64,000 nt of DNA. It comes from Dehalococcoidia bacterium. GTDB lineage: Bacteria; Chloroflexota; Dehalococcoidia; UBA6926. Shown piece by piece: positions 6,814 to 35,010 of this stretch (its first letter is position 1; the number at the start of each line of letters is the position of its first letter). The stretch spans positions 211,129 to 275,128 of the forward strand of contig OZ244736.1 in NCBI GenBank assembly GCA_965219405.1. Direction: 5' to 3'. The notes beneath the pieces are model-generated. The model was not told where the DNA came from. It saw nothing but the letters and a program-made list of their open reading frames with translations, and did no database searches. A program made the translations under genes and the position numbers.

Positions 6814-6825
6814 CCTGCCTCCCCT

Positions 6826-6842: not shown

Positions 6843-6936
6843 TCTAGCGGCGCAGCCACGGCGGCGGCACCGCATTCCTGCGCGCAATGTAGCACCGCAT
6901 GGACGCGGGGTAAAGCTGCGGATGGTGAGGGGCGGT

Positions 6937-7494
6937 TTAGCTAGACTGCGAATCCAGCAGGCGCTCCGCGATGCTCCGGAGTATTCGCCACTCCTCGTGC
7001 GAAGACGCAAACCTCTTCTCGATCCCAATTGCCCACCCATTGAAGTCGTCCTTGGTGTGTCGCTTGATCTCCAGATCCGCGCGCTTCATAACGAGCCGGT
7101 TGACTTGGGGATCGTTTCGCACGGTGGCCAGCAGCTCCGTGTCGTGATCCTCACCATCCCACGTCACGTCGACCGCCCTGCCAAAGATGGGAAAGCTCTT
7201 CTTTCTGGTGGACTTTATAGAGACGGCGCGATCTTTCGAAAAAGGGCGGTCGTCCGGCGCCAGGAAGACGTACCACCACCGCGTGGCGGAATACTGGCTG
7301 CCGTCTATCTTGAAGAGGTTGACGCGGCTGATCGGCCCTTCCGCGACGGCAATGCTCCCGAGGGCGCGCGCCCATCCCGGCTTCTGCACGTTCTCGATGG
7401 GCACGTCTCGTTCGGACATGGACGCGGGGAGGCCCAACGACTGTAGAGCAGCCGCCAGATTGTCCCGTGTCTTGTCTCTGAATCGCTCTCTCAT
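6937..7494 (-). CDS. hypothetical protein (no recognisable domain)
   Basis: 185-aa ORF in a clear intergenic slot between an ACAD and a DUF1761 gene. No motif that I recognise. Confidence 0.5.
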   Translation of the reverse strand: MRERFRDKTRDNLAAALQSLGLPASMSERDVPIENVQKPGWARALGSIAVAEGPISRVNLFKIDGSQYSATRWWYVFLAPDDRPFSKDRAVSIKSTRKKSFPIFGRAVDVTWDGEDHDTELLATVRNDPQVNRLVMKRADLEIKRHTKDDFNGWAIGIEKRFASSHEEWRILRSIAERLLDSQSS

Positions 7495-7578
7495 AACCGC
7501 ATTTTAATCACTCGGCTCCGCGCCCTCGCGTCATCAAACGTGGTCATTTTGGCCCTGCGATCAGGGCGCTGCCGTCCG

Positions 7579-7983
7579 CTAGGACGTCGCGCCAATGATT
7601 GTACCCATCACGGTGAATGTGACGACGTGATAGCCGGCGTTGATGACGAAGAGCGTTGGTGATTTCTTCTCAAAGAGGTAGGTAACGGCAAATGAGGCGG
7701 CGATGAACGCAGCGCCAACGGTGAGCCCGGTACGCAAGCCTTCGAGCAGGGATGAGTCGTCACCGATGACCAGGGAGAGGACGTAACTGGCGATGAGCAG
7801 CATGACGAACGAGCCGCCGAACATGCGAATGAGATTGCCCTGGTGGTCATCCTCCGTGAAGCCGTTCTCACGCATCCACGGCTTGGCAAACAGGATGGGC
7901 GAGTACCAAGCGCCCCCAATCACAAACGCCACAAGTGTCGCGGCAATGATACCGATGTAGTTGAGATCCGTATTGAAATCCAT
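7579..7983 (-). CDS. DUF1761-family membrane protein
   Basis: 134 aa with 4 predicted TM segments. The N-terminus 'YIGIIAATLVAFVIGGAWYSPILFAKPWM' is typical of DUF1761. Confidence 0.7.
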   Translation of the reverse strand: MDFNTDLNYIGIIAATLVAFVIGGAWYSPILFAKPWMRENGFTEDDHQGNLIRMFGGSFVMLLIASYVLSLVIGDDSSLLEGLRTGLTVGAAFIAASFAVTYLFEKKSPTLFVINAGYHVVTFTVMGTIIGATS

Positions 7984-8054
7984 GAGCCCATGTCCTTACT
8001 TCCACTGCTGACGCCCTAGTGTAGAGGAAGTGGGTGCGCCGGGGCTTGGCGAGC

Positions 8055-10277: not shown

Positions 10278-10341
10278 ACGCGTGCCACAGTGAGATACGT
10301 ATCGACCGCCAGGTGCAGTGCATTCCCTCGCCTGTTGGGCG

Positions 10342-12304
10342 CTAGTCCGTCCGAAACACGTACCGCAAGTCAAACAGGCCGTACAGCGTGGCCGTCATGT
10401 TCCCGAAGACATTACGGACGGCGGAGATTCTCTCTGAGAGCGTCGTGTAGATGATCGGCACATTTTCTGCCGCTATTTCCTGCGCCTGGTGGTATAACGC
10501 CACACGCCTTTGCCGATCCAATTCCTTGCTGCCGTTGATGTAAAGCGCGTCGATTTCCGCCTCCCAGTCCATAGCGGGTTCCAACTGGTTGGGATTCCAG
10601 AGGTGTAAACCTTCGCTGCTGTGCCAGACGTTGATTCCGCCATGGGGCCTCCGTCCCGCCCGTGAAGCCGATAACGACCGTTTCCCAATCGTAGGTGGTG
10701 GTCAATTGGCCCACGATTTGGCCAAAGTCGATCACGGTGTAGCCAACATCCAAACCGATAGCTTGCAGTCCCTCATGGACAATTGAACCGACGGTCTCCC
10801 GGACGCTATTTCCCTGGTTCGTTGTCAGCGCGAATGCTATATTCTCTCCGTTCACATCTTCACGGATGCCATCGCCGTCCGTATCGATCCATCCCAGGTT
10901 GTCAAGAATCTCATTCGCTTTGTCGATGCTGTATTCGTACTGCCGGACGTTTGGGTTATGGAAGCTCCCTGCGGCCGGACTGATGGACGACCACTGCGGA
11001 TAGCCGAATCCGTGCTGCGCCTCATCGATGATTCGTTCCTTGTCGATGACGTGAGCGACGGCCTGCCGGAATTGCGTGTTGCTAAACCAGTCACGCTTGC
11101 GAGGGTCCAGGTACGGCTCACCGGTTTCAGGGCTCTGCCCGGGGTTCATATTGAATGCCAGGAAAGTCGTGCCGAAGGTGGGGCCGCGCCTGTAGATGGT
11201 GAAGTTCTGTTCTTCTTGCAACGGTTCCAGTTGAGCGTACTCTTCACCAAGAACGCCGTGTATGTCAGATCTGCCGGACAAGAAGTAAGAGAGTTCATCC
11301 TCTAACTCGGGAACGATTAAATGCATGACCCGATCCAGGTACGGCAAGGTGTTTCCGGAGTCGTCCTCCAGCCAGTAATCGGGATTCCGCACCATGACGA
11401 CGCGCTCGCCCGGAATATAGGTTTCGATGGTGAACGGCCCGGTTCCGATGATGTCTGAGGGGGCAGTGTTAATGTCCCAGGTCGAACTGAATGTGCCGTC
11501 GTCCACGTGCCTTTCAAGAATGTGCCGGGGGTAGATGGCCGTGCCCATGCTACGGAGGAACGGGGCAAATGGCTGCGGCAAAACGCAGACGATTGTGTGC
11601 TCATCCACGGCCACGACGGTCATCGGAGAGACGCGCCACTCTCTGGTCTCCTCATCCAGGTAGCGGAAGTTGAAAGCTGGACGCGCACTTGCCGGGATGT
11701 CGTCGTTGTAAATGATGCTATTGAACGTAAACTCCACGTCCAGGGCGGTGAACGGCGTGCCATCATGCCATCGCACATCGTCGCGCAGGTGGAATGTCCA
11801 CGTCATTCCGTCCTCTGACGCCTCCCATGATCGGGCCAAGGACGGCTCGACGCGATCGTCCAGCCACGAGGTCTCAGTGAGGCCCTCAAAGAGGTAGGAA
11901 AGGACGCCGGACGATGAGGCATCATTCGAAATGGCCAGGTTGAACGTCAGCGGATCGGAGATGGTGGCAACAGTGATTTCCCCTCCGTATTCGCCGGTAA
12001 CGTACTGAAACTCCTCTGCGTTCCCCTTTAGTTGCTCGGTGACCGGCAGTCCAGCTCCAACGTCCGGAGCCGCTGTCGGCTCCGGAGCGGGAGCCGATGC
12101 CACAGTGGGGGTGGGCGTCACGATTGCGGTGGGCAAAGTCGTGGGTGCCATGATGGTGACCGCCGGCAAGGATTGCGCGGCATCACGCGTGCCCGTTTCC
12201 GGTACGTCGTTTCCGCAGCCTGCAAAGATAGAACCGGCAACCACGCACACAATCAATATCAACGTTAGGCGACGGACTGAAACATAGTTAGGCACGAAAT
12301 TCAC
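10342..12304 (-). pseudogene. ABC transporter substrate-binding lipoprotein, family 5 (peptide/nickel, DppA/OppA-like), disrupted by a 1-nt frameshift
   Basis: ORF 10412..12304 has a lipoprotein signal ('IFAGC') and a family-5 SBP body, but its last ~75 aa are out-of-frame nonsense. ORF 10342..10584 encodes the expected C-terminus. Reading that frame upstream gives '...PHGGINVWHSSEGLHLWNPNQLEPAMDWE', which joins cleanly to '...VVIGFTGGTE' at the G4/C run 10644-10650. Confidence 0.8.
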
Positions 12305-12462
12305 TCCCTAGCCGTCCTTCACTGCTCCCGCTATTCCATCTTAATGGACATTGGCTGGGAAGGTGCTGGGCCAGTATCACGTGCCTACGTCAAGCCCCCC
12401 CGCGCGCCAATTGAGGCGCAGGGGGCCGAAACTCAGTCCAACTGAATGCGTCGGCTGGAACC

Positions 12463-13674
12463 CTACCGCGGCAACCCTAGGCCACGCTGGGCGATGATGT
12501 TCGGGCCGAGCAAAATGCCACCGCCGCCGCCGAATCCCAGCGAGAGGGAGATGGCGTTGTAGGCGCCGTAGTAGCCGTTATGGGGCGCTCTGTCCTCGCC
12601 GCGATTCAGGATGCCGTAATCGCCGATAATCTTGGCGAGCGTGGGCCAGAAGTGCAGCTTGGCCGTCACCTGGTTGCGGTAGCCGGAGATCGCGCCCTCG
12701 TGCTGCGGCACATCGCCGCGCGCCTGCATCCATGCCACGCGGTTGGCCAGTTGGCGATCCGCCTCGATGGTGACACGCAGATCGGCCAGCTTGTAGCGAA
12801 CCATCGGGTCTTCCAGGATGGGCTGCCCGTTGAACTTTGTCTCCTTGAGAACGTCCATGAATCGCTCAAGGATGCCGATGTGGCGGACGGGGCCCTCGGT
12901 GCCGGTTCGCTCGAAGTTGAGCGTCGTCATTGCAGCGTACCAGCCACGGTTGACCTCACCGAGCACGTACTTCTTGGGCACACGGACGCCGTCCATGAAG
13001 ACCTCGCACCAGCGCCAGCGGCCCATCATGTCGTACAGGGGGCGAAGGGTTAGTCCGTCCGGGCGCGTCCCCGCTTGGTCCTTGAGGTTCAGGAGCAGGT
13101 ACGTGATTCCCCGGTGCTTGGGAGCCTCCGGGTCTGTTCGGACGAGAACGTGGTACCAGTCGGCAAGGTGCGCGCCGGACGACCATATCTTCTGGCCGGT
13201 GATAACGAAATCGTCGCCATCCTCGACGGCGCGTGTCTGGAGTGAGGCGAGGTCCGTGCCGGCGTTCGGCTCAGAGAAGCCCTGCGCCCATTCGATGTCG
13301 CCGTTGGCCATCTGTGGCAGGAACTCCTGCTTCACCTCATCAGAGGCGTGGTACATGAGCGCGCCGGTAATGTTTCCGGCTGGCGAGCCTGACGGCGCAT
13401 TGGCGTAGGCCAACTCTTCCTTGTAGACGAACTGCTTGTTGATGGGAAAGTCCGTCCCGCCGAACTCCTTGGGCCAGGTCATCGTGTACCAGCCCTTGTC
13501 GACAAGTTTCTTCACGAATTCCTTGTCGTTGTCCCGGGACTCCTGCATATCAAAATCCCAGGAGCGGACGGCCATGCTGTGTCCGTCGAAACCCTTGCTG
13601 TCCCAGTTGTTATTGATGAAGTCACGCACTTCTGCTCGAAATGCCTGATCTTCGGGATCCTCTCGATAGTCCAT
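12463..13674 (-). CDS. acyl-CoA dehydrogenase family protein (group B)
   Basis: ORF trimmed to 'MDYREDPEDQ' (ATG 13674, SD GGAGGG). Motifs 'FSEPNAGTD', 'TTLNFERTG' and 'GFGGGGGILLGPNIIAQRGLGLPR'. Confidence 0.9.
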   Translation of the reverse strand: MDYREDPEDQAFRAEVRDFINNNWDSKGFDGHSMAVRSWDFDMQESRDNDKEFVKKLVDKGWYTMTWPKEFGGTDFPINKQFVYKEELAYANAPSGSPAGNITGALMYHASDEVKQEFLPQMANGDIEWAQGFSEPNAGTDLASLQTRAVEDGDDFVITGQKIWSSGAHLADWYHVLVRTDPEAPKHRGITYLLLNLKDQAGTRPDGLTLRPLYDMMGRWRWCEVFMDGVRVPKKYVLGEVNRGWYAAMTTLNFERTGTEGPVRHIGILERFMDVLKETKFNGQPILEDPMVRYKLADLRVTIEADRQLANRVAWMQARGDVPQHEGAISGYRNQVTAKLHFWPTLAKIIGDYGILNRGEDRAPHNGYYGAYNAISLSLGFGGGGGILLGPNIIAQRGLGLPR

Positions 13675-13811
13675 CGGAGCGCCCTCCTGCCCCACGCATC
13701 GCCCTCGCGATGGCGTTCTGCTAGCCGGTCATCCGACCGACAAGCGTCATCATCTCAAAGCTAGGCGCACTCTAGCACTCACGGTGTACGTGGTAAAGGG
13801 GCAGGGAGGGG

Positions 13812-14159
13812 TTAGCGGGGGGCGGGGGTGGGGAGGTTGACCTCAACCTCAATCATTTCAACGTGGAGGTCGTCTTCGTTGAAGGCGCGGTCTTCCTCTG
13901 TCTCGCCATCAAGTTCGTAATTCATGAGCTCCCGAAACCACTCGACCGCTTCCGCAAATGTGGACATCTTCGGCTCAAAAACGGGCTCGCCATCCTCGAC
14001 AGCCCCCTCGATACAGAACTCAATGATCTCTTTCGCTATCTCTCGGGCGTGCGGCAAGTCATCGGCTGAACTGGCACAGCCAGGAATGTCCGGCACCAGA
14101 ACAGCTATGCCTCCCGGCCCTCCGTCGTCTACGAATAGGCATAGGAACGTACTCTTCAT
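13812..14159 (-). CDS. hicB: HicB-family antitoxin
   Basis: ORF trimmed to 'MKSTFLCLFVDDGGPGGIAVLVPDIPGCASSADDLPHAREIAKEIIEF' (HicB fold). Its ATG shares the A of the upstream HicA TGA (TGATG overlap at 14157-14161). Confidence 0.75.
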   Translation of the reverse strand: MKSTFLCLFVDDGGPGGIAVLVPDIPGCASSADDLPHAREIAKEIIEFCIEGAVEDGEPVFEPKMSTFAEAVEWFRELMNYELDGETEEDRAFNEDDLHVEMIEVEVNLPTPAPR

Positions 14160-14359
14160 CACCACCTCACCGTGAGTCCTGCTTGGTGCATTATACGTGC
14201 CCACGTTCCCTTCGGCACGACTTGGCTGCCCTGACCGCTAATAGTGACTGTGCCGCGCTTGGTCGGATGATGGAAATGCCGATGGCTGCCGTTCTGCCGG
14301 ACAAAGTACCAGCCGTCCCTCTCCACAGTCCGGACGGCGTCTCTATACGTTTTCGCCAC
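14159..14359 (-). CDS. hicA: HicA-family mRNA interferase toxin
   Basis: 66 aa from GTG 14359: 'VAKTYRDAVRTVERDGWYFVRQNGSHRHFHHPTKRGTVTISGQGSQVVPKGTWARIMHQAGL'. It has the canonical HicA length and the 'GSHxxF.HP' catalytic-His region. The longer ORF to 14455 overlaps the HNH gene. Confidence 0.8.
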   Translation of the reverse strand: MAKTYRDAVRTVERDGWYFVRQNGSHRHFHHPTKRGTVTISGQGSQVVPKGTWARIMHQAGLTVRW

Positions 14360-14360
14360 G

Positions 14361-14753
14361 CTAGTCGTGGTGGAGGGGTGAGATCTGCGAGTGGGGATTT
14401 GTCGCGCACTCGAATTGGAGATGCCAGCGGGCACGCGCCTCCCAATAGGCAGCACGGTTCAAAGCATCACGACGTTGCTCCTGTGTCCAGCCGGCGTAAT
14501 CGAACGACGTTGCGTCCTCAGGCCCGTCGCGGAACCACTCCTGCCGCGCCCACCACTCAAGCGGCGTCATCGTGCCGCGCTCGTTCTGGCCGGTCAGGGC
14601 GCGATTGCAGTCCGGGCACGCCTGCACCAGGTTGGCGAGGTGGTCGCACCCACCGCGATCGAGCGGGATCACGTGCTCCCAGCTGGGCTTGGGCCCAAAA
14701 TCGGTGAACGGGTCGGCACAGTACGCGCACTGCGTCCATTCGCGTTCCATCAT
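14361..14753 (-). CDS. HNH endonuclease-domain protein
   Basis: 130 aa. 'CAYC...EHVIPLDRGGCDHLANLVQACPDCN' gives the two CxxC pairs plus the H-N-H core. Its TAG stop is 1 nt from the HicA GTG. Confidence 0.75.
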   Translation of the reverse strand: MMEREWTQCAYCADPFTDFGPKPSWEHVIPLDRGGCDHLANLVQACPDCNRALTGQNERGTMTPLEWWARQEWFRDGPEDATSFDYAGWTQEQRRDALNRAAYWEARARWHLQFECATNPHSQISPLHHD

Positions 14754-14784
14754 GGCAGTGGTTCCTCGGCCACCCTGGGACTAG

Positions 14785-15984
14785 CTACCTCGGCAAGCCC
14801 AGTCCCCGTTGCGCGATGATGTTGCGCTGGATTTCCTTTGTGCCGCCGCCGAATGTCCTGCCCGTCGAGAGGTAGTGGTTCGCGCCCACGTAGCCGCCCA
14901 TCGGCGTCAATCGTTCCGGGCCGCCGGGGATGATTGTCCCCAAGTCCTGCATCAGGCGGGAAGCCGTGCGGAACACGCGCTGCGTCGCCTCACCCGCCCA
15001 CACGCGGGCCAGAGAGCCCTCTGCCTGCGGCATCAGGCCCTTGGTCTGCATCCATGCGACGCGGTAGGCCAGCATCCGCCCCAACTCAATGTAGACCCGC
15101 AGGTCTGCCATCTCATTTCTCACGATGGGGTTGGCCGTGAACGGCTCGCCGTTGATGTTCGTCGTCCGCAGATAATCGAGCACCTTCTCCCACTCGCGGA
15201 GCAAGGAGGCCGGGATGTCCACCGACGCGCGCTCGAAAGACAGCGTCGTCATAGCCGCGTACCACCCACGGTTGAGCTCACCGACGAGGTTACGCGCCGG
15301 AATCCGCACATCCTGCAGGAACCACTCCGACCAGCGTCGGCGGCCAAGCATGTCATACAGCGGCCGCAGCGAGATGCCCTCGCTTTCCATGTCGATGAGG
15401 AAATAGGAGATGCCGCGATGCTTGGCGGCGTCCGGGTCCGTGCGCACGAGGATGTGTCCCCACTTGGCACGGGGATGGTGGGCGGTTGACGTCCATATCT
15501 TCTGTCCGTTGATCACGTAATCGTCGCCGTCCGCCACGGCGCGCGTGGTCAGGGAGCCAAGATCAGAGCCGGCGTTCGGCTCCGAGAATCCCTGCGCGAA
15601 CTCAAACTCGCCGTTAGCGAGGCGCGGAATAAAGTATTCCTTCTGCCAATCCTGGCCGTGGATCATGAGGAGAGGCGCGACGAGGCCGCCGCCAAGCGCG
15701 GACGGCGCGCCCTGATAGGCCATCTCCTCGCGGTAAACGAGTTGGCGCTCGATGCCGGCATCCTGCCCACCGAACTCCTTCGGCCAGTGCATCGTCCACC
15801 AGCCCTTTTGGGCCAGTTTCTGCTCAAATTGGTGTTGGAGTTCCAGCGCGGCGTTGTCATCGAGGTGATACGACGTGTTCATCGTGGAAGTCAGGTCGTA
15901 TCCGTGATCGTCCCACTCGTTCTGGACGAACTCGCGAACCTCCTGACGAAAAGCCTCATCCTCAGTAGAGAACCTGAAATCCAT
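14785..15984 (-). CDS. acyl-CoA dehydrogenase family protein (group A-like)
   Basis: 399 aa with SD GAGGGGG. Motifs 'FSEPNAGSD', 'TTLSFERASVD' and 'GGGTKEIQRNIIAQRGLGLPR'. Confidence 0.9.
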   Translation of the reverse strand: MDFRFSTEDEAFRQEVREFVQNEWDDHGYDLTSTMNTSYHLDDNAALELQHQFEQKLAQKGWWTMHWPKEFGGQDAGIERQLVYREEMAYQGAPSALGGGLVAPLLMIHGQDWQKEYFIPRLANGEFEFAQGFSEPNAGSDLGSLTTRAVADGDDYVINGQKIWTSTAHHPRAKWGHILVRTDPDAAKHRGISYFLIDMESEGISLRPLYDMLGRRRWSEWFLQDVRIPARNLVGELNRGWYAAMTTLSFERASVDIPASLLREWEKVLDYLRTTNINGEPFTANPIVRNEMADLRVYIELGRMLAYRVAWMQTKGLMPQAEGSLARVWAGEATQRVFRTASRLMQDLGTIIPGGPERLTPMGGYVGANHYLSTGRTFGGGTKEIQRNIIAQRGLGLPR

Positions 15985-16061
15985 GACCTTTACCCCCTCA
16001 CCTTTTCGCCAACTCGCGACGGTACGCGGTCATGATACAGCGCGCGGGCGCGGCGCGGTGA

Positions 16062-17750
16062 CTATGCGTCAAGCAGTCCCTCTTGCGGCATCGTCCAGGG
16101 CGGCTGCATCTGGCCCCTGAACATCTTGGCGCGCGGCAGTGAAAGGTCGGTTAGCGGCACGTCGATCACGACTGGCGCATTGCGGGACAGGGCCTCAGGC
16201 AGCAGCGTTTCAAGCTCCTCCGGACTCTTCGCTCTTATTCCCACAGCTCCGAATGATTCCGCAAACTTGACGATGTCGGGGTTCATCAGCTCAGTGCCGT
16301 ACGCTCCGCCGAAGTAGGTATCCAGGTCGCGCGCGACATTGCCGTATGCGTCATCCCGGAAAACCACGGTGACGATGTTGATGCCATACTGCACGGCCGT
16401 CGCCAACTCGACCGCGTTGAACATGAATCCGCCATCTCCGCTCACACACAGGACAGGCGCATCAGGACGCGCCACTTTGATGCCCATAGCCGTTGGGAAC
16501 GCATACCCCAGGTTGAAGGAATAGCCGGAGTCGATGTATGTCTTTGGTCGAATCACTCGGTAGTGGGACCGCGCATAGTATCCGAACTGCGTAACGTCCC
16601 AGGCAATGACAGTTTCCTCAGGTAAGGTATTCCACATCATCTCAAGGATCGGATACTGCGGCTCCTCATCGCGAATGTCGTAGTAGGCCATGAGCCTCTT
16701 CGTCACTTCGACGGCCTCTTCCGGGGACGGGCGATCCTGGGCGCCCGCCTCCGCAAGCAGCGGCAGCAGTGCCTCAATCGTTGCGCCCGCGTCTCCGTGA
16801 AGGGGAATCGTATTCGACTGAACCCGAGTCAACTCCGAATCGTCGATATTGATATTGATCAGTGTGGAGGATTCTCCGGCGGGATTGCCCATGGAGAAAC
16901 GCGCTCCAATCCCTATGACGGCATCGGCGGAAGCCAGAACCTCGTAGATCTGGTTCATCTCATCCATCTCGGCGCGCGGGCCGAAGCACGAGCCATAGGA
17001 AAAGGGGTGGTCATCCGGGATCGTCCCCTTCCCGCCGCTTGAGGTGACGACCGGAATATTAGTCGCCTCTGCAAGCCGAACGAGCGCATCTTCCGCATTG
17101 GACTGCGCCACGCCGCCACCGGCGTAGATGATTGGCAAACGCGAATCCATGATGACCTGCACGGCCCTGCGAAGGTCGTCTGCGCTCGGCACGATATGCG
17201 AAACGGGAGCCGGTTCACGTAGTTGAACGTCTTCACGCTCAACACCCGTTTCCGGTGACATCTCGATGAGGACGGGGCGCGGGCGGCCTGTTCGCATCTG
17301 TCGAAATGCCTCGGTGACGGCATCCGGCGCCTCGCGAGGTCGCAGCACGTGGCGGCGCCACTTGGTTACAGGTCGGACCACCTCGGCCTGATCAAGGACC
17401 TCATGAACCGCGCCGATCCCCTTGCCAATCTGCGCCCGAGGAATCTGGCCGACAATCGCAAGAACCGGCGAGGATCGAGCATATGCGGTTGCGAAGGCTG
17501 AGGCAGCGTTATAAAGTCCCGCGCCCGGCACGAGGAGTACAACCCCCGGCTTACCTGAAACACGCGCGTATCCATCCGCCATGTGGGTGGCTCCCTGCTC
17601 ATGTCGTGTCGTTATCAGCCGAATGGATGGCTCATCTCGCAGGGCGGCCACGATCCCGGACATATGAATGCCAGGAATTCCGAAAACAACCTCGACGCTC
17701 TCTCGAACTAGAGACGCAACAAGGGCTTCGCCGCCGCTCATTCGTGTCAT
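16062..17750 (-). CDS. thiamine diphosphate-dependent enzyme (acetolactate synthase large subunit / 2-hydroxyacyl-CoA lyase superfamily)
   Basis: ORF 16062..17780 trimmed to ATG 17750 (SD GGGAGAGG 7 nt upstream). N-terminal Pyr domain 'GGEALVASLVRESVEVVFGIPG'. ThDP motif 'SGDGGFMFNAVELATAVQYGINIVTVVFRDDAYGN'. Confidence 0.85.
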   Translation of the reverse strand: MTRMSGGEALVASLVRESVEVVFGIPGIHMSGIVAALRDEPSIRLITTRHEQGATHMADGYARVSGKPGVVLLVPGAGLYNAASAFATAYARSSPVLAIVGQIPRAQIGKGIGAVHEVLDQAEVVRPVTKWRRHVLRPREAPDAVTEAFRQMRTGRPRPVLIEMSPETGVEREDVQLREPAPVSHIVPSADDLRRAVQVIMDSRLPIIYAGGGVAQSNAEDALVRLAEATNIPVVTSSGGKGTIPDDHPFSYGSCFGPRAEMDEMNQIYEVLASADAVIGIGARFSMGNPAGESSTLININIDDSELTRVQSNTIPLHGDAGATIEALLPLLAEAGAQDRPSPEEAVEVTKRLMAYYDIRDEEPQYPILEMMWNTLPEETVIAWDVTQFGYYARSHYRVIRPKTYIDSGYSFNLGYAFPTAMGIKVARPDAPVLCVSGDGGFMFNAVELATAVQYGINIVTVVFRDDAYGNVARDLDTYFGGAYGTELMNPDIVKFAESFGAVGIRAKSPEELETLLPEALSRNAPVVIDVPLTDLSLPRAKMFRGQMQPPWTMPQEGLLDA

Positions 17751-17855
17751 GGCTTGCCTCTCCCGACCATCCAGTGTCACATAGACGATTCAACGTGATC
17801 CTGGTTCACCTTGTCCGAATAACGTTGATATTTGCACACCTCGCCTGCAGTGGGC

Positions 17856-17889
17856 AAAAAGTAGATAGGGGCGGCTTGGCCGCCCCTAT
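17856..17889 (-). terminator. intrinsic terminator downstream of the ACAD gene ending at 17920
   Basis: Perfect 11-bp stem ATAGGGGCGGC-TTG-GCCGCCCCTAT (17865-17889). On the minus strand it is followed by CTACTTTTTG. Confidence 0.6.
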
Positions 17890-17919
17890 CGTCACGATTC
17901 CTGTTGAATGAGCCGGCAG

Positions 17920-19125
17920 CTACCTGGGAAGCCCGAGACCGCGCTGAGCAATCAGGCCGGGCGCGAGGAGAATGCCGCCGCCGCCCGCGTAGCCCGTCAC
18001 CATGGACAACGCATAGTTTGTACCGTACATGCCGTTGTCCGGGGAGCGCTTCTCACCCTGGAGCAGGGCGCGATAGGGCCCCATGATGTGCGCCAGGACA
18101 GGCCAGAAGTTGAACTTCGCCATCATTGAGGAGTACAGGTTGGCGATCAGGCTCTCAGACTGCGGCACTTCACCCTTGGACTGGAGCCAGATGAGGCGCA
18201 GCGAGAGCATTCGGCCCGTCTCAACACGGATGCGCAGGTCTGCAAGCTGATGGCGGACGTGCGGATCATTAAGCACCGGCTCGCCATTGAACTTGAGGTC
18301 CTTCGCCATATCGAGGAACTTCTCCAGCACGGCAACGTTCCTGGCGCCAGTGCCGCCCGCACGCTCAAAGTTGAGCGTGGTCATAGCGGCGTACCAGCCA
18401 CGGTTGACCTCGCCGATGACCTGCCGCTTCGGAACACGGACCTCGTCCATGAAGACCTCGTTCCAGCGGCGTCGGCCAAACATGTCATAGAGCGGCCGGA
18501 GCGTGATGCCGGGCATCTGCGCGCCGTCATCATCCTTCAACTGCATGATCAGATACGTGATGCCGCGATGCTTGGGCGCGGACGGGTCCGTGCGTGTCAG
18601 CACGTGGTACCAGTTGGCGTAGTGGGAACCGGATGACCAGATCTTTTGGCCGGTGACGACGAAATCATCACCGTCCTCGACGGCGCGCGTGGTCAGGCTC
18701 GCGAGGTCGGTGCCCGCGTTCGGCTCGGAGAAACCCTGCGCCCAGTCAATATCGTTCGTTGCCATCTTGGGGAGGAACTCATTCTTGATGGACTCTTCGG
18801 CGTGGTACATCATCGCGCCGGTGATGTTTGCACTGGGGCTGCCCTGCGGGGCTCCCGCATAGGCGAGCTCGTCCGCGTAGATGACCTGTCGGGACAACGG
18901 AAGGCCCTGCCCGCCGTACTCCTGCGGCCACGCCATCGTCCAATAGCCCTTTTCAACCAGCTTCTTCTGGAAGATCTTGGTATCCTCGCGGTAATCCGCG
19001 CTGTCAAAGTCATAGCCGAAGACGTTGAGATCCGTGTTGTAGTCCTTGGAATCCCATTCCCGTCGGACGAACTCTCGTATTTCCTGCCGAAACGCCTCAT
19101 CTTCCGGCGCAAACGTGAAATCCAT
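17920..19125 (-). CDS. acyl-CoA dehydrogenase family protein (group B)
   Basis: ORF trimmed to 'MDFTFAPEDEAF' (ATG 19125, SD GGGGAGG). Motifs 'FSEPNAGTD', 'TTLNFERAG' and 'GYAGGGGILLAPGLIAQRGLGLPR'. Confidence 0.9.
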   Translation of the reverse strand: MDFTFAPEDEAFRQEIREFVRREWDSKDYNTDLNVFGYDFDSADYREDTKIFQKKLVEKGYWTMAWPQEYGGQGLPLSRQVIYADELAYAGAPQGSPSANITGAMMYHAEESIKNEFLPKMATNDIDWAQGFSEPNAGTDLASLTTRAVEDGDDFVVTGQKIWSSGSHYANWYHVLTRTDPSAPKHRGITYLIMQLKDDDGAQMPGITLRPLYDMFGRRRWNEVFMDEVRVPKRQVIGEVNRGWYAAMTTLNFERAGGTGARNVAVLEKFLDMAKDLKFNGEPVLNDPHVRHQLADLRIRVETGRMLSLRLIWLQSKGEVPQSESLIANLYSSMMAKFNFWPVLAHIMGPYRALLQGEKRSPDNGMYGTNYALSMVTGYAGGGGILLAPGLIAQRGLGLPR

Positions 19126-19351
19126 TGTTGGCTTGCCTCCCCACCGGCGCGCGCTCGATAGCGCCACCACTTTTCTAGACCATATAAAACGGCATCATTC
19201 CTGTGCGGAATCAACTGTCAGCATACCACGCGAACCATAGTGAAACGGCAGCGGGAACGGGCGAATATGTGTCGAGCTGGGCTGCGCGCCTCCCCACAGG
19301 CGCTCAGACGATTGGCGGTTTTTCTATCCAGGCGGCAATCACGCAGATAAA

Positions 19352-20539
19352 CTACCGCGGCAGGCCGAGAGCCCGCTGCGCGATGATGTTCTTCTGCACT
19401 TCCCGCGTGCCGCCGCCGATGCTCAGACCTGTGGCAAGGATGGAGTTCACACCCATGAATCGGCCGGCGGGCGCCCACTTGTCCTCCGGGCGCAGCTGGC
19501 CGTAGTCGCTCAGAATGGACGCGATTCCCCGATAGATCCCCTGGTGCAGAACATCTCCCCACAGCTTGGTCTGTGACGACTCTTTCACCGGAATCTCGCC
19601 CCGCGTCTGCATCCACGCCACACGGTAGGAGATCATCCGCGCCACTTCAATCTGCAGGCGCATGTCGGCCAATATGTGCCTCACGCGCACGTCGTCAAGC
19701 AGCGGCTGCCCGTTGACCTTTACCTCCTTCGCATAGTCCATAAACTCCTCAACGGTGCGCAGCATCCGCGCGGGACCGCCGATGTTGGAGCGCTCAAAAG
19801 ACAAATGCGTCATCGTGGCATACCAACCGCGGTTGACCTCGCCAACCATGTTGCGCTTGGGAACGCGAACCTCATCCATGAAGACCTCGCTCCAGCGGCG
19901 GCGTCCCAACATGTCATACAGCGGGCGAAGGATGATGCCGGGGGACTTCATGTCGATGATGAGATACGTCAGGCCGCGATGTTTGGCCGCCTCGGGGTCC
20001 GTGCGAACCAGCGCCTGCCCATAGTCAGCCATCTCCGCCATGGACGTCCATATCTTCTGGCCGGTGACGATGAAATCGTCGCCGTCTTCAACGGCGCGTG
20101 TCTGCACGCTGGCAAGGTCTGAGCCCGCGCCGGGCTCGGAGAGCAAGCGGCAGAACTCGATCTCAGCCGTCGCGTAATGCGGCAGCAGGTCGTCCCGATG
20201 CCACTCATTGCCGTGGTACATCAGGACGGGTCCGACGAGGTCGCTTGCGCCGGAAGATGGCGCGCCCCAGTAGGCCATTTCCTCGCGATAGATCAGTTGG
20301 CGGGAGATGGGCGCGCCCATTCCACCAAATTGCTCCGGCCAGTGCAGCGTCCACCAGCCCTTGCCGGCAAGCTTGAGCTGCCATTCCTTGACCAGATCGA
20401 TGGCCTCATGGGTATGCAGATCGTAAGAGGCGATGGACGCCCCAACGGAGTCATAGCCCTTCGGGTCCCACTCGGTGGTGACGAAATCACGCACCTCTTG
20501 TCGGAAGGCTTCGTCTTCCTGCGAAAACCTGAAGTCCAT
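19352..20539 (-). CDS. acyl-CoA dehydrogenase family protein (group A-like)
   Basis: 395 aa. Motifs 'LSEPGAGSD', 'THLSFERSNIG' and 'GGGTREVQKNIIAQRALGLPR'. Confidence 0.9.
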   Translation of the reverse strand: MDFRFSQEDEAFRQEVRDFVTTEWDPKGYDSVGASIASYDLHTHEAIDLVKEWQLKLAGKGWWTLHWPEQFGGMGAPISRQLIYREEMAYWGAPSSGASDLVGPVLMYHGNEWHRDDLLPHYATAEIEFCRLLSEPGAGSDLASVQTRAVEDGDDFIVTGQKIWTSMAEMADYGQALVRTDPEAAKHRGLTYLIIDMKSPGIILRPLYDMLGRRRWSEVFMDEVRVPKRNMVGEVNRGWYATMTHLSFERSNIGGPARMLRTVEEFMDYAKEVKVNGQPLLDDVRVRHILADMRLQIEVARMISYRVAWMQTRGEIPVKESSQTKLWGDVLHQGIYRGIASILSDYGQLRPEDKWAPAGRFMGVNSILATGLSIGGGTREVQKNIIAQRALGLPR

Positions 20540-29679: not shown

Positions 29680-32268
29680 ATGACGACAAACGAAAATGAA
29701 CGGTTCACCCTTCTTCCCCGGTCCGTGAGGCCGTCACACTACAAGCTGGAACTCACGCCGGACCTGGAAAACGCTGCATTTACGGGTTCAGTGGCTATTG
29801 ATGTTCTTGTGACGGAAATCACGAACTTGGTTGTCTTAAACGCCATTGAGCTGGAATTGGGCTCTGCAACGTTCACACCGCGTGGTGGCGAGGCCTCCGC
29901 ATCGACGGGGATCACGTACGACGAGGAACCTGAGACTGCCACGATCAGTTTTGGCGAGCCGCTGCCCGTCGGAACGGGGACGCTTGAGATTTCGTTCACA
30001 GGGATCCTGAACGATCAGCTGCACGGGTTTTACCTGAGTTCGTTCCGTGACAAGGACGGGATTGAGCGGCGGATGGCGGCGACCCAGTTCGAAGCATCGG
30101 ACGCGCGGCGGTGCTTCCCCTGCTGGGACGAGCCTGCGGTCAAGGCCACGTTCCAGGTCGACTTGATCATCCCCGAAGGGTTCTCTGCGATCTCCAACAC
30201 GCTGGAGTCTGCGCCGGAGCCGGAGGACGGGGGTAGGCAGCGGGTCAGCTTCCCCACAACGCCAATCATGTCCACGTACCTGCTCGCGTTCATCGTGGGT
30301 GAAATGGAGTCCATCGAGGCGCGGTCGGCCAATGGAACGCTGACGCGGGTGTGGGCGACGGTGGGACAGGCGGAGCTGGGGCGGTTCGCATTGGAAACGT
30401 CGGTGCGGCTGCTGGACTACTACAACGACTATTTCGGCGTGGCGTACCCGCTGGAGAAGCTGGACCACATCGCGCTGGCGGACTTCGCAGCCGGGGCGAT
30501 GGAGAACTGGGGAGCGGTGACGTACCGCGAGGTGGCGCTGCTGTTCGATCCGGCGAGTTCATCGCCCGGCACACGGCAGCGCATTGTTGAGATCATCGCC
30601 CATGAGATGGCGCACATGTGGTTCGGCGATCTCGTGACGATGGCGTGGTGGAACGACCTGTGGCTCAACGAGAGTTTCGCGTCATGGATGGGGGCCAAGG
30701 CGACAGACACGCTGTACCCGGACTGGGCCATCTGGACGCAGTTCATCGCCACGGACGTCGCGCCGGGCATGAGCCTGGACGGGCTGGAGAACTCCCATCC
30801 AATCGAGTCCGAGGTGCGGAATCCCAACGAGGTCAGCCAACTCTTCGACGCCATCAGCTACGAAAAGGGCGCTTCTATTCTCCGCATGTTGGAGCAACAC
30901 ATCGGCCCGGACGCCTTCCGCAGCGGCCTGAACAGCTATATGCGGGCATACGCGTACTCCAACGCGGAGGGGGCGGATCTATGGCGAGCGATGGCGGATG
31001 CGTCCGGGCAGGATATCCCGGGGATGATGGACTCCTGGATCAAGCAGGTTGGGTATCCGGTGGTGTCTTCGGAGACCACGCGCGGCGACTCCGGCGCGAC
31101 CATCTCCCTAACACAGCGGCGTTTTCTCTATTCCGGGCCGACCGACGACGAAACACTGTGGCACGTGCCCGTCCGCATCACGACGCAGGGGAGTGAAGAC
31201 GAGGCGAGGATGTTGTTCACCGGCCGAACTGAATCCATCGAGGTTCCGTCGGCATCGGCGGACGGGTGGATCAAGGTCAACGCCGGTGGGGCAGGATTCT
31301 ATCGCGTCGGCTACCAACAGGATGAGCTTGACCGACTGATTGCCGCGGTGCGGACACGCGAACTGAGCGCGTCGGATCGCCTGACTCTGCTGGAGGACAC
31401 CTACGCCCTTGCGCGCGCCCGCCACATTCCTGCTCGCAACTACCTCGAATTGGCGCAGGCATATGCGGACGACGAGGACTACAGCATCTGGGCGGCGATG
31501 GCGTCTCAGCTCGGAGCTATCGAGGCGCTATCCCGCAATGAGCCGTATCTGGAACGCTACCAGGAGTTCGCCCGAGGGCTGACGCAGACCGTCGCCGGCA
31601 AGATCGGCTGGGAACAGCCGGAGAATGAGGCGCATCTGCGAACGCTATTGCGGGCGGTGGCGATGAGCGCGGCAGGCGGCTTCGGCGATGAGGCCGTGTT
31701 GTCCGAAGCCGCAGCGCGATTCGCGCGTTTCCTTGAAGATGAGTCATCGCTGCGGCCCGACCTGCGCGCAGTCGTCTACAACCTGACCGCCGAGCAGGGC
31801 GACGACGAGATGTTCGAGACCATGAAGCGCCTGGAGGGGGAATTCGATCTGCAGGAGGAAAAGGTCCGTATGCAGATGGCGCTCACTCAGTTCAGCCAGC
31901 CGGAACTCCTCCAGAGGGCGCTCGAGATGTCGGTCGACCAGGATCAGATTCGCGTGCAGGACGCGCCGCGCATCCTGATGGGGGTGGGCGGCAACCTCCG
32001 AGGCCTGAACCTGACGTGGGAATTCATGAAGAACAATTGGCCGGAGATCGAACGCCGCTATGCAGGCGGGGGGTTCGCAATCATGCGGCTGGTTTCCATC
32101 ACGGGCGGATTCGCGACGGAGGAGGCAGCGCAGGAGGTGCGCTCATTCTTCGAGGAGCATCCGACGCTGTCCGCGACGCGGGCGATCCAGCAGTCGCTGG
32201 AGCGAATAGAGCTCAACCGGCTGTGGCTGGAGCGGAATCGGGGCGAGCTGGCGGCGTGGCTTAGGTAG
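29680..32268 (+). CDS. pepN: M1-family zinc aminopeptidase (aminopeptidase N-like)
   Basis: 862 aa. Exopeptidase motif 'GAMENWG' and zinc site 'HEMAHMWFGDLVTMAWWNDLWLNESFA'. Confidence 0.9.
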   Translation: MTTNENERFTLLPRSVRPSHYKLELTPDLENAAFTGSVAIDVLVTEITNLVVLNAIELELGSATFTPRGGEASASTGITYDEEPETATISFGEPLPVGTGTLEISFTGILNDQLHGFYLSSFRDKDGIERRMAATQFEASDARRCFPCWDEPAVKATFQVDLIIPEGFSAISNTLESAPEPEDGGRQRVSFPTTPIMSTYLLAFIVGEMESIEARSANGTLTRVWATVGQAELGRFALETSVRLLDYYNDYFGVAYPLEKLDHIALADFAAGAMENWGAVTYREVALLFDPASSSPGTRQRIVEIIAHEMAHMWFGDLVTMAWWNDLWLNESFASWMGAKATDTLYPDWAIWTQFIATDVAPGMSLDGLENSHPIESEVRNPNEVSQLFDAISYEKGASILRMLEQHIGPDAFRSGLNSYMRAYAYSNAEGADLWRAMADASGQDIPGMMDSWIKQVGYPVVSSETTRGDSGATISLTQRRFLYSGPTDDETLWHVPVRITTQGSEDEARMLFTGRTESIEVPSASADGWIKVNAGGAGFYRVGYQQDELDRLIAAVRTRELSASDRLTLLEDTYALARARHIPARNYLELAQAYADDEDYSIWAAMASQLGAIEALSRNEPYLERYQEFARGLTQTVAGKIGWEQPENEAHLRTLLRAVAMSAAGGFGDEAVLSEAAARFARFLEDESSLRPDLRAVVYNLTAEQGDDEMFETMKRLEGEFDLQEEKVRMQMALTQFSQPELLQRALEMSVDQDQIRVQDAPRILMGVGGNLRGLNLTWEFMKNNWPEIERRYAGGGFAIMRLVSITGGFATEEAAQEVRSFFEEHPTLSATRAIQQSLERIELNRLWLERNRGELAAWLR

Positions 32269-32302
32269 GAACGAAGGGGACTTACATCGAATCGTTGACA
32301 GG
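32269..32302. repeat. left end of insertion: direct repeat GAACGAAG (32269-32276) plus TIR-L GGGACTTACATCGAATCGTTGACAGG (32277-32302)
   Basis: Read directly. TIR-L is the reverse complement of 33803-33828 at 25/26 positions, with 22 consecutive matches. Confidence 0.9.
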
Positions 32303-32320
32303 GGAGACGTGGACGGTCGT

Positions 32321-32983
32321 TTAGTCCAGTTTGGCGCACGCACGTCTGTAGGCCTCCATGTCTCCGGCGTCGCGGCGCGAGACATAAACAGTCTTCACTT
32401 TGTCAGGGGGCACGTAATATCCGCTTGAGGTCAAAAAACTGGATACACGCCAGACAGCATCTTCTGGGCGAGCGCAACATACTGCGACTTGCACTGAATC
32501 TTCAGCAATATTGTAGACGAGGCTATGGCTTCTCTCACTCATCGGGCGCCACTTGGGACGGGGAGTAGGTTTCGGGGTGGCAAATGGCGAGACTTCGACC
32601 ATCACACTTGCCACGTTACGACTTACAACGTTCTTGACACTTGTAGGCACCTGTTGAATCTCGTCGATGTTTGACGGGAACTCGCCATCATGTTCGCTCT
32701 CGTAAGCGGCGACTGCCCCGCCGGTCAACGCCATAAAAACTCCGACTGAGACCATCGCTCGCATCTTGTGTCGATTCAACACCGAGAAGATAAAAACACC
32801 AAGACTCAGAATAAAGGGGACAAGTGGCAGAAGCCAATAAATCGACGTGGGATTGGATTCCAGTTGCTCGAAAATGGGTACCTCCCCGAGGCGATTGGAC
32901 TCAGCTATTTGAAGTCTCGGCCGAGTGATGGTGACGTAGCTATATGTGTTGACAGTGGGATACACTGTATATACAATGCCCAA
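32321..32983 (-). CDS. hypothetical membrane protein (cargo of the insertion)
   Basis: 220-aa ORF. Two hydrophobic helices ('IYWLLPLVPFILSLGVFIFSVL', 'MVSVGVFMALTGGAVAAY') followed by a soluble C-terminal region. No recognisable domain. Confidence 0.45.
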   Translation of the reverse strand: MGIVYTVYPTVNTYSYVTITRPRLQIAESNRLGEVPIFEQLESNPTSIYWLLPLVPFILSLGVFIFSVLNRHKMRAMVSVGVFMALTGGAVAAYESEHDGEFPSNIDEIQQVPTSVKNVVSRNVASVMVEVSPFATPKPTPRPKWRPMSERSHSLVYNIAEDSVQVAVCCARPEDAVWRVSSFLTSSGYYVPPDKVKTVYVSRRDAGDMEAYRRACAKLD

Positions 32984-33025
32984 TTGCTATGACTTTTCAT
33001 GGTGGGCAAGGAAAGGGAGTGGGCT

Positions 33026-33319
33026 ATGGCTTCGTCGATAATTGATGAGGAACATCTGAAAATTATCGGAGACCCAAAACAAGCTGTGAAAGAACTGGCG
33101 GAGTTTAGTGAGACGGCTAAACTGCTTTCTCGTGCTGACATTTGCAATCAATACAGGGGACAATGGGTCGCATTGTATGAAAGTAGTGTCCGTGCTCACG
33201 CTGAGACCCTAGAGGACATCTTGAGACAAGTTGACGAGCAGGGATTGCCGCGTGGTCAAACACTAGTACATTTCATCGACGATGGCACTCGTACTCTGAT
33301 TCTGAATGCTTCGGGGTAG
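33026..33319 (+). CDS. small protein, DUF5678-like (cargo of the insertion)
   Basis: ORF 32999..33319. The second ATG (33026) is preceded by AAGGAAAGGGAG. 'QYRGQWVALYESSVRAHAETLEDILRQV' resembles the (Y/F)xGxWVA core of DUF5678-type proteins (recognition from memory, low certainty). It overlaps the next gene by 14 nt. Confidence 0.55.
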   Translation: MASSIIDEEHLKIIGDPKQAVKELAEFSETAKLLSRADICNQYRGQWVALYESSVRAHAETLEDILRQVDEQGLPRGQTLVHFIDDGTRTLILNASG

Positions 33320-33755
33320 TTTTGATGCCGACGGGCGTCCCTATGTTAGCGGAATGTTGCTCATCCCTCGTCTGCGGTTACGTGCTAGATTGTCGTTTCT
33401 AGTCGATACTGGTGCGGATACCACCCTCTTGATGCCGTCGGATGCACGGAGCATGGGCATTGACTATCAGCTCCTTGGAGGGATACATGAATCAACAGGA
33501 ATCGGCGGAACAGCAAAAATCTACAAGGAGCCTGCGATAGTTGCTTTCGTGGACGGTCATTCTCTATTGACCTATGCCATCAACTTGGCTATTTTGCCGG
33601 ATAAATCCGTCAATCTGCCCTCGTTGTTGGGACGCGACATACTCAGACATTGGACAATGCTCCACTCGCCAAAGACGGGGGAGCTTCATTTTGAGGCACA
33701 ACAGAGAAATCCTCTCGCCCGTTGGCTGGGTCGGACGTGGCTCGGTCGTCACTAA
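33306..33755 (+). CDS. retropepsin-like (clan AA) aspartic protease
   Basis: 149 aa. Catalytic 'FLVDTGADTTLL' (D-T-G-A) and the downstream 'SLLGRDIL' motif typical of single-domain retropepsin-like proteases. Confidence 0.7.
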   Translation: MLRGSFDADGRPYVSGMLLIPRLRLRARLSFLVDTGADTTLLMPSDARSMGIDYQLLGGIHESTGIGGTAKIYKEPAIVAFVDGHSLLTYAINLAILPDKSVNLPSLLGRDILRHWTMLHSPKTGELHFEAQQRNPLARWLGRTWLGRH

Positions 33756-33802
33756 GCTAATCCGCATTGAGATTGAATCAATCCCAACCTCGCCACTACC
33801 TG

Positions 33803-33836
33803 CCTGTCAACGATTCGATGTAAGTCTCGAACGAAG
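33803..33836. repeat. right end of insertion: TIR-R CCTGTCAACGATTCGATGTAAGTCTC (33803-33828) plus direct repeat GAACGAAG (33829-33836)
   Basis: Read directly. See the left end. Confidence 0.9.
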
Positions 33837-33837
33837 C

Positions 33838-35010
33838 TTATCGCCGCAGGGGTTGGCGTTGGCGGTATGTTCCTGTGCGCCACGCCCATTCCATGGGGCC
33901 GAAGCGGAATCGACTGAGCCATACGGGCGACCACCAGAGTTGCAGCGCCCAGACGGCGAGCACGAAGAGCAAGACTCCCGCGCGGCCAATCTCCACGTCT
34001 GCCAGGAGATGGGTCAGGATCAGAACGCCTAGCACGGTCTGCGCGAGGTAGTTGGTCAGCGCCATACGCCCAACGGCAATGAAGCGCTCCTTAAGCCATG
34101 CCAGCCCTCTTGTTCGCTGCCAGAGGATGATCAGGCCCATGTACCCGAGCGAGGCGGGAATGGTGCCGAGGGTATTCGGAATCTCGCCGATGAACGCAAC
34201 ATCGCGGCCGTAGTCGGCCGCGTGCGTTATCACGACACCGATTGTTGCGAGCGTAAGGCCAATGGCAAGCCCACCGATTGCCATTCTCTGATAGAAACGG
34301 TCAGAAAGCGCGCCCTGCATGAACCCGGTCTTGTAGAGCCCGGCGCCAACGAGTATCAGTCCGAGCGCGCGCATCAAGTAGCCTAGCGCGAGCACACCGG
34401 ACAGGGCCTCATAGTCCGTGCCGGACGGCATCGATCCGTCGTCGGGCAGAAGCCATATGCCGTCCAACGGCACATCCGTTGTGCTGACCCAGTTCTGAAG
34501 AGCAAATGAGGGGATCACGGATGCGAGGAAGATAAGGACGCCTAATACGATCATTGCGCGCGAGGGTAATCGCCTCAGTAGCAGCAGGACAAATGCCGAA
34601 ATCGCATAGGCTGTCAGGACGTCCCCCTCCCACACGGCCATATGGATGAGTCCCATGATGAGCAGCAGGATATTGCGCCACGCGTTCAGGAGGGTCGGAC
34701 GCTTCTCACGCCGGGCAGCGCGTTCGATGAACAGGAAGATGCCCGCGCCAAATAACAGGGAGAAGATGCCCATGAACTTCTGGTCGACCAGGATTTCGCC
34801 CAAAATGGCGATTGCCCAGTCAAGCCCCGTGTCAGACCCGGCGACGCTGATGTTTCGATAGGGAACCATGCCGTAAGCGAAGGAAACGGCATTCATCAGC
34901 AGGATGCCGAGCATGGCTACGCCACGTATCAGATCAAGGCTGAGAATCCTGTCCGACTCTGCAACCGGCCCGCGCGCCGGAGCGTCCGGGGCTGCGGCCT
35001 GTCCGTTCAT
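33838..35010 (-). CDS. DUF418/YeiB-like polytopic membrane protein
   Basis: 390 aa with many TM segments. 'RILSLDLIRGVAMLGILLMN' and the C-terminal 'GPMEWAWR' are typical of the YeiB/DUF418 family. Confidence 0.75.
   Translation of the reverse strand: MNGQAAAPDAPARGPVAESDRILSLDLIRGVAMLGILLMNAVSFAYGMVPYRNISVAGSDTGLDWAIAILGEILVDQKFMGIFSLLFGAGIFLFIERAARREKRPTLLNAWRNILLLIMGLIHMAVWEGDVLTAYAISAFVLLLLRRLPSRAMIVLGVLIFLASVIPSFALQNWVSTTDVPLDGIWLLPDDGSMPSGTDYEALSGVLALGYLMRALGLILVGAGLYKTGFMQGALSDRFYQRMAIGGLAIGLTLATIGVVITHAADYGRDVAFIGEIPNTLGTIPASLGYMGLIILWQRTRGLAWLKERFIAVGRMALTNYLAQTVLGVLILTHLLADVEIGRAGVLLFVLAVWALQLWWSPVWLSRFRFGPMEWAWRTGTYRQRQPLRR

Follow-up and report, generated by a model that had tools for sequence, protein, structure and literature searches.

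A transposase-less, transposon-like element carrying a DUF5678–retropepsin gene pair in an uncultured Dehalococcoidia bacterium

A stretch of 64,000 nucleotides (hereafter the window) of contig OZ244736.1 from a Dehalococcoidia bacterium (Chloroflexota) contains, between the genes for an M1 aminopeptidase and a DUF418 protein, a unit of 1,552 bp (32277-33828) that ends in near-perfect 26-bp terminal inverted repeats (TIRs), is flanked by a perfect 8-bp target-site duplication (TSD) and carries three open reading frames (ORFs), none of them a recognisable transposase gene. With a probability of about 0.72, this unit is a non-autonomous transposon of the mobile insertion cassette (MIC) type, moved in trans by a transposase encoded elsewhere. 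MICs are defined by inverted repeats, the lack of a transposase and, usually, a target duplication, and mobilisation in trans has been shown for MIC231, by the transposase of IS231A (PMC3913671). The element of the window fits this class because inverted repeats and a target duplication are present and a transposase gene is absent inside. The first-pass annotation of this DNA had already proposed a transposase-less cassette of the MIC type, mobilised in trans. The cassette is the reading best supported by the ends, the TSD, the empty sites of related genomes and the absence of a transposase; the mobilisation in trans is inferred and unproven, because neither a parent insertion sequence (IS) nor a second copy was found, nor a transposase gene sharing the TIRs. 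Transposase-less cassettes with TIRs and a TSD are an established category (PMC3913671). As a cargo transposon without a transposase, the element is a clean textbook case from a lineage of uncultured Chloroflexota that has been little studied, and opens no new question.

Ends of the element and target-site duplication

At the left end, the 8-mer GAACGAAG (32269-32276) is directly followed by the left TIR, GGGACTTACATCGAATCGTTGACAGG (26 nt, 32277-32302, plus strand), the whole covering 32269-32302. At the right end (33803-33836), the right TIR, CCTGTCAACGATTCGATGTAAGTCTC (26 nt, 33803-33828), which reads GAGACTTACATCGAATCGTTGACAGG on the minus strand, is directly followed by the same GAACGAAG (33829-33836), in direct orientation. 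A repeat finder delimited two arms (32279-32302 and 33803-33826) that are complementary at 24 of 24 positions, and the addition of the two outer bases gives 25 of 26, the single mismatch, G versus A, falling on the second position of the TIR. The match of 25/26 had been reported by the first-pass annotation and was confirmed by the sequence and by the repeat finder; its count of 22 consecutive matches was wrong, the actual run being 24. The perfect 8-bp direct repeat that it had described outside both TIRs was likewise found, abutting them at zero offset.

The 24-mer occurs in the window at the two TIR sites only, even when up to three mismatches are allowed, and this pair is the sole strong inverted repeat of the whole 64 kb. 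None of 100 dinucleotide-preserving shuffles contained any 24-mer match. Given the inverted-repeat pair, the chance of identical flanking 8-mers is 4^-8, or about 1.5e-5. The 26-nt TIR has no 11-6-11 dyad, just a weak CGA-A-TCG centre. TIRs combined with an 8-bp duplication are the footprint left by transposases that make staggered cuts, and the near-perfect ends, the perfect TSD and the shuffled sequences all support the earlier view that the footprint is genuine.

Insertion site and base composition

The element occupies the gap between two convergent stop codons, as had been described: that of the M1 aminopeptidase ORF (862 aa; TAG, 32266-32268) and that of the DUF418 ORF (390 aa, minus strand; 33838-33840). 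Both flanking genes are intact and have the same lengths as in their 90% clusters. The 90%-identity cluster of the M1 protein has 34 members, from metagenome-assembled genomes (MAGs) of Chloroflexota/Dehalococcoidia, and the corresponding locus was fetched from several of them. Removal of the element together with one TSD copy leaves TAG-GAACGAAG-C-TTA, that is TAG-GAACGAAGC-TTA, with a spacer of 9 nt. In related genomes that share 80-85% nucleotide identity with the window, the site is empty: the convergent genes are 7 nt apart in L001 (TAA-GAAGGAC-CTA) and 9 nt apart in L003 and L004 (TAG-CCTGGGCGC-TTA). The 9-nt spacer restored in the window matches the length in L002, L003 and L004. The unit is thus an insertion, because the genes of the relatives sit 7-9 nt apart and its removal leaves exactly 9 nt; the empty-site comparison suggested by the first-pass annotation therefore holds at the genus level. 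The three element genes were found at the M1–DUF418 locus in none of the relatives examined, so that the contrary situation, relatives carrying the three genes at this place without the repeats, was not encountered.

The G+C content of the element (32277-33828) is 0.509, compared with 0.626 for the M1 gene, 0.604 for the DUF418 gene and 0.602 for the window, which bears out the low G+C content noted earlier for this islet (0.509 versus 0.60-0.63 outside). The cargo is of foreign, lower-G+C origin.

Absence of a transposase gene

No transposase or recombinase match was obtained for any of the three ORFs in Pfam, NCBIfam, PADLOC or PHROGs, and Rfam and tRNA scans of the element returned nothing meaningful. 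The earlier statement that no known transposase is present among the ORFs is hence borne out by these four collections and by the retropepsin fold predicted for the third product. An autonomous IS was rejected, as neither a DDE transposase nor an HUH enzyme nor a Ser/Tyr recombinase is encoded and the model of the protease has a retropepsin fold. The identities first assigned to the ORFs, namely a membrane protein with two transmembrane helices (2-TM), a small DUF5678-like protein and a retropepsin-like protease, were all upheld, by the hydrophobic helices of the first and by Pfam matches of the second (DUF5678, E 4e-7) and the third (protease families, E 7e-8 to 2e-5).

Passenger gene 1: a 2-TM protein

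The first gene lies on the minus strand (32321-32875) and, on the basis of its homology to P0140, comprises 184 codons from an ATT start (32873-32875), with two hydrophobic helices in the N-terminal part. The ORF stays open upstream of this ATT, through GTG and TTG codons (TTG at 32983), into the divergent promoter region; the source annotation (P0139) holds the C-terminal 137 aa only. P0140, from locus L090, is the single close homolog (71% identity by BLASTP, 74% by phmmer). Its ATG start (L090 6001) aligns with the ATT of the window, and a GGGGAGG motif upstream is conserved in both. The family is rare, with just seven representatives among 1.8e9 proteins in an exhaustive phmmer search, and the protein matched no family in Pfam, NCBIfam, PADLOC or PHROGs. 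By comparison with the L090 copy, gene 1 is under purifying selection, because the ratio of nonsynonymous to synonymous substitution rates (dN/dS) is 0.20.

At the DNA level, the window resembles L090 within gene 1 only. In L090, which belongs to another genome, P0140 stands in an operon with a gene for a trypsin-like protease, within a cassette of G+C 0.52-0.53 (flanks 0.64-0.66) whose borders are arrays of repetitive extragenic palindrome (REP)-like hairpins and not the TIR of the window. Distant 2-TM homologs (39% identity), each followed by a gene for a HicB-like antitoxin, were observed in L092 (3767-4852) and L093 (488-1573), the former with a serine recombinase (Resolvase) gene nearby. 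The TIR is absent from L090, L092 and L093. These surroundings suggest that the 2-TM family travels with mobile or addiction-type genes.

Passenger genes 2 and 3: the DUF5678–protease operon

The second and third genes are on the plus strand. Gene 2 (33026-33319) codes for a small protein of the DUF5678 family (97 aa, the same length as the source call P0146), with GGAAAGGGAG just upstream, and gene 3 (33306-33755) for a retropepsin-like aspartic protease of 149 aa; the two overlap by 14 nt. Ahead of them, also on the plus strand, lies a candidate sigma-70-like promoter (TTGACA-17-TACAAT, 32949-32977), which agrees with the consensus at 11 of 12 positions and could serve the operon. A perfect 10-nt palindrome, TGTATATACA (32966-32975), detected by the repeat search, covers part of both the spacer and the -10 hexamer and could be an operator.

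Gene 3 matches the Pfam families gag-asp_proteas, Asp_protease_2 and RVP (E 7e-8 to 2e-5, above the gathering cut-offs). The motifs FLVDTGAD, GIGG and PSLLGRD are conserved, and in an alignment of 40 sequences DTG and SLLGRD are invariant. An AlphaFold2 model has a predicted local distance difference test (pLDDT) score of 89, and the best PDB folds found with Foldseek are Rickettsia APRc and retroviral proteases (feline and human immunodeficiency viruses, FIV/HIV), with a probability of 1.00. By motif and predicted fold, the product is a clan AA retropepsin-like aspartic protease. The source annotation gives it as 100 aa (P0019, from M50) and leaves out the catalytic DTG motif; judged from the homologs, the full 149-aa ORF is the real protease gene.

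A scan of GTDB representative genomes yielded 80 loci with relatives of the protease (L010-L089, the match lying mostly at 4001-44xx), spread over Dehalococcoidia, further Chloroflexota, Latescibacterota, Alpha- and Gammaproteobacteria and additional groups, with two or three copies in several genomes. At 78 of these 80 loci the protease gene is directly preceded by a DUF5678-like ORF, and the commonest overlap between the genes is a 4-nt stop/start (ATGA; 29 of 67 loci). None of the 80 loci contains the 2-TM gene, none a TIR-like sequence (approximate search) and none an inverted repeat with a duplication comparable to that of the window (scan for inverted repeats with a TSD). The pair is therefore regarded as a self-standing two-gene module that was captured by the element, because it is kept in 78 of 80 loci without such ends. 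A further DUF5678–protease pair was noticed in L091 (1370-2042).

Several features of the operon are reminiscent of toxin-antitoxin systems: a small partner gene, translational coupling, multiple copies per genome, a location in flexible islets and a promoter that contains a palindrome. The pair may thus be an uncharacterised toxin-antitoxin or defence-type module, by analogy with such systems. The protease matches the PDC-M08B profiles of PADLOC (E 4e-7), as do 12 of 40 members of its family; the DUF5678 partner matches no PDC-M08 component and no other PADLOC model. A PDC-M08 candidate defence system was accordingly rejected, as the similarity concerns component B only and a second component is lacking; the PDC-M08B match may stem from nothing more than a retropepsin fold common to both. 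Among PDB sequences, no significant match was obtained with a profile built from the DUF5678 partners, and the AlphaFold2 model of the DUF5678 protein, built from an alignment of two sequences, reached a pLDDT of 54 only. A literature search on DUF5678, PDC-M08 and retropepsin toxin-antitoxin systems returned nothing relevant. The DUF5678–retropepsin operon is widespread, often multi-copy and uncharacterised, and a toxin-antitoxin role, if true, would be unusual for a retropepsin.

Proposed origin and alternative explanations

In the proposed scheme, a transposase encoded elsewhere, most likely a DDE enzyme of an IS family whose staggered target cuts are 8 bp apart, would have bound both 26-bp TIRs and placed the unit in the 9-nt spacer that separated the convergent M1 and DUF418 stop codons, and repair of the staggered cuts would have duplicated GAACGAAG. 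The IS families with 8-bp duplications and termini rich in G are IS256, ISL3, IS6, IS1595, IS1, IS66 and ISAs1. The genes inside would be passengers only, comprising the rare 2-TM gene and a translationally coupled DUF5678–protease operon with its own, predicted strong promoter and a palindromic candidate operator. This operon could act as a toxin-antitoxin-like or defence-like addiction pair, with the protease as effector and the DUF5678 protein as its regulator or inhibitor, which would help the cassette to be retained. If so, IS-type ends in this lineage can take addiction-like gene pairs along with them.

Several results weigh against this interpretation. They concern above all the lack of any other copy. 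The exact 20-mer core of the TIR has no match in 185,579 GTDB representative genomes, and the exact 18-mer and 19-mer sub-patterns have none in IMG/VR. The 20-mer core has two matches in JGI metagenomes, both in an unrelated AT-rich coding region; they were dismissed as chance, since the similarity stops at 20-21 nt, within the coding region. No match to a 34-nt query (TIR plus 8 nt) was found by blastn among PLSDB plasmids. No further copy is present in the 64-kb window, the part of the 1.9-Mb source contig that was covered, or in the approximately 0.8 Mb of fetched loci; in these sequences an approximate search (up to 8 mismatches per 26-mer and up to 2 per 14-mer sub-block) gave chance-level matches only, such as L029 3465, with 8 mismatches and no inverted partner. 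For each of the three element proteins a single contig is on record, and the nearest relatives are at 54-74% identity. The element is thus a singleton across all collections searched. Furthermore, an empty site is lacking among conspecific contigs: L005, L006 and L007, which share 98-99% nucleotide identity with the window on both flanks, hold other inserts at the junction, and because of these inserts the pre-insertion sequence GAACGAAGC is deduced and not directly observed.

The singleton status, without another copy or a parent, would also be expected of a fossil of a once-autonomous transposon, which would have inserted here complete, creating the TSD, and whose transposase gene would later have been deleted or replaced on the spot, the present unit never having been mobilised as a cassette; the ATT start of gene 1, where the homolog has ATG, may likewise indicate incipient decay. 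This main rival to the mobile cassette is nevertheless judged unlikely. Only 18 nt separate the left TIR from the stop codon of gene 1, and 47 nt the stop codon of the protease gene from the right TIR. With the promoter region occupying the intergenic stretch in the middle, no space is left for a transposase remnant. The near-perfect TIRs (25/26) and TSD (8/8) argue against a long history of internal rearrangement, and purifying selection acts on the cargo, with a dN/dS of 0.20 for gene 1. Less probable still is an exchange of cassettes at a hot spot by site-specific or homologous recombination, in which the TIRs would be recombinase sites (Xer/pdif-like) and GAACGAAG the crossover core. It could account for the at least five other kinds of insert found at the same junction in related genomes and for the repeats that border cassettes here and elsewhere in the clade, and pdif modules are also transposase-less, with inverted sites and often with toxin-antitoxin genes. 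However, the other inserts have direct repeats (22-170 nt) or REP-like hairpins at their borders, and none has inverted repeats or any sequence in common with the TIR; the TIR lacks the 11-6-11 dyad; and the duplicated 8-mer flanks the repeats on the outside, the arrangement expected of transposition, instead of sitting within a recombination core. The 8-mer also accounts for nearly all of a spacer that is as long as those of empty sites. An integron-type cassette was rejected on similar grounds, the repeat having no dyad core and the duplication lying outside the repeats.

The first-pass annotation had offered, as an alternative to mobilisation in trans, an element whose mobility function is undescribed, for which no positive evidence emerged. 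That the element moves by its own genes, be it the DUF5678–retropepsin pair or the 2-TM protein, would reconcile the transposition footprint with the lack of a known transposase, and DUF5678 has no known function and was the subject of no paper in the literature search. Such autonomy is nonetheless highly improbable, given that the pair occurs in 78 of 80 loci over several phyla with no TIR or TSD around it and the copies of the 2-TM gene in L090, L092 and L093 lack the TIR. In addition, the fold predicted for the protease is that of a simple retropepsin and includes no domain for binding nucleic acids, a 97-aa protein or a two-helix membrane protein is implausible as a transposase, and the element has not multiplied. 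Taken more broadly, there is a slim chance that the unit is not a passive cassette of an ordinary IS: it would then be moved by an undescribed mobility function, encoded by the element or by a host system specific to this clade, or be one product of a system dedicated to cassette exchange, with the M1 stop-to-stop junction as its recurrent target. The source is a metagenome-assembled contig, which leaves chance similarity or an assembly artefact to be considered; both are next to negligible in view of the shuffled sequences (0/100 with a match), the zero offset of the TSD and the flanking genes, intact and collinear with those of relatives up to the stop codons, and a chimeric join would not yield matched inverted ends plus a duplication.

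Comparison with known systems

The mobile cassette reading places the element beside MIC231 of Bacillus cereus and mic-qnrD and mic-qnrS2 of Proteeae/Aeromonas, which it resembles in its size of about 1.5 kb, its inverted repeats of about 24-26 bp, the target-site duplication, the absence of a transposase and passengers with their own promoter, here a predicted one (PMC3913671). The differences are that for MIC231 the cognate IS231A is known and mobilisation in trans has been shown, whereas no such partner was found for the element of the window; that the TSD is 8 bp long, compared with 2 bp in mic-qnrD; that the cargo is a DUF5678–retropepsin pair with a 2-TM protein instead of a resistance or peptidase gene; and that the host is an uncultured Chloroflexota bacterium.

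Tn3-derived inverted-repeat miniature elements (TIMEs) are described (PMC4133298) as non-autonomous elements with transposon-type inverted repeats that may carry or assemble passengers. TIMEs and the Tn3 family share with the present element the non-autonomous unit, the inverted repeats of transposon type and the passenger genes. Transposons of the Tn3 family have inverted repeats of about 38 bp that start with GGGG and generate 5-bp duplications, and addiction-type gene pairs are known among their passengers. A Tn3-type derivative was rejected as unlikely, the repeats of the window being 26 bp long and the duplication 8 bp and not 5 bp. The pdif (Xer) modules of Acinetobacter plasmids are small, transposase-less units with inversely oriented sites of about 28 bp and, often, toxin-antitoxin genes. 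Their sites contain an 11-6-11 dyad and have no flanking duplication, whereas the repeat of the window has no dyad and is flanked by 8 bp of duplicated sequence; a Xer/pdif module was rejected for these two reasons. As for the PDC-M08 system of PADLOC, the likeness is confined to that between its component B and the protease, and the DUF5678 partner, matching no component, sets the pair apart.

The M1–DUF418 junction in related genomes

The junction that harbours the element (32268/33837 in the window) holds at least six different contents among related genomes. It is empty in L001 (7589-7597), L003 (7589-7599) and L004, and it is occupied by the TIR element in the window, by a SLFN_AlbA_2 gene in L002 (7589-9312), with an imperfect direct duplication of the junction itself on both sides, and by a MatE transporter gene in L005 (5173-6806). 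A 258-aa ORF between 50-nt direct repeats is present in L006 (5173-6488) and L007, a DUF1828/1829 gene and a DUF6978 gene between 22-nt direct repeats in L094 (5589-7313), and two small ORFs (97 aa and 218 aa) in L095 (5589-7049), L096 and L097. The conspecific contigs L005-L007 thus differ from the window in their junction content at 98-99% nucleotide identity, and the junction is a natural hot spot of gene-cassette turnover between strains as close as these. It could serve as a model for the formation of small flexible islets in reduced, symbiont-type genomes.

In several of the inserts, the stop codon is immediately followed by much the same sequence (…GCCTAC.GC…GTTCGCGATCAG.ATTGA.TGG). The borders of the other inserts are direct repeats or REP-like hairpins and not TIRs, and these inserts probably arrived by other routes. 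On the simplest reading, the stop-to-stop junction of convergent genes tolerates insertions of any origin. In L002, the duplication around the SLFN_AlbA_2 insert (7522-7691 and 9238-9375) is a direct one of approximately 82-87% identity, made up of the 3' end of the M1 gene, the spacer and the 3' end of the DUF418 gene. Campbell-type integration of a circle with a diverged copy of the junction would produce such an arrangement.

Other repeats in the window and in the fetched loci

REP-like hairpin repeats (e.g. GGATTCCGGCTTTCGCCGGAATGA and TGTCATTCTGAGCGGAGCGCAGCGGAGTCGAAGAATC) border low-G+C gene cassettes in these genomes. They form the arrays of L090 (5670-5830 and 7620-7880), occur as flanking direct copies in L091 (1045-1082 and 2219-2256) and are also found in L005 and L006, at about 5190-5340.

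The general scan for inverted repeats with a TSD, run over all loci including the 80 protease loci, had two finds only, both IS-like elements unrelated to that of the window and close to a DUF5678–protease pair. The one in L058 (1163-3510) has TIRs of 32-34 nt and an 8-bp direct repeat, CTAGAAAA, and ends 180 nt upstream of the pair; the one in L057 (5784-8339), with TIRs of 41 nt and a 6-bp direct repeat, adjoins it.

Finally, the region 1700-20400 of the window contains several diverged direct repeats of 100-300 nt with 60-80% identity, unrelated to the element, which appear to be paralogous genes; ACAD genes had been mentioned there by the first-pass annotation.

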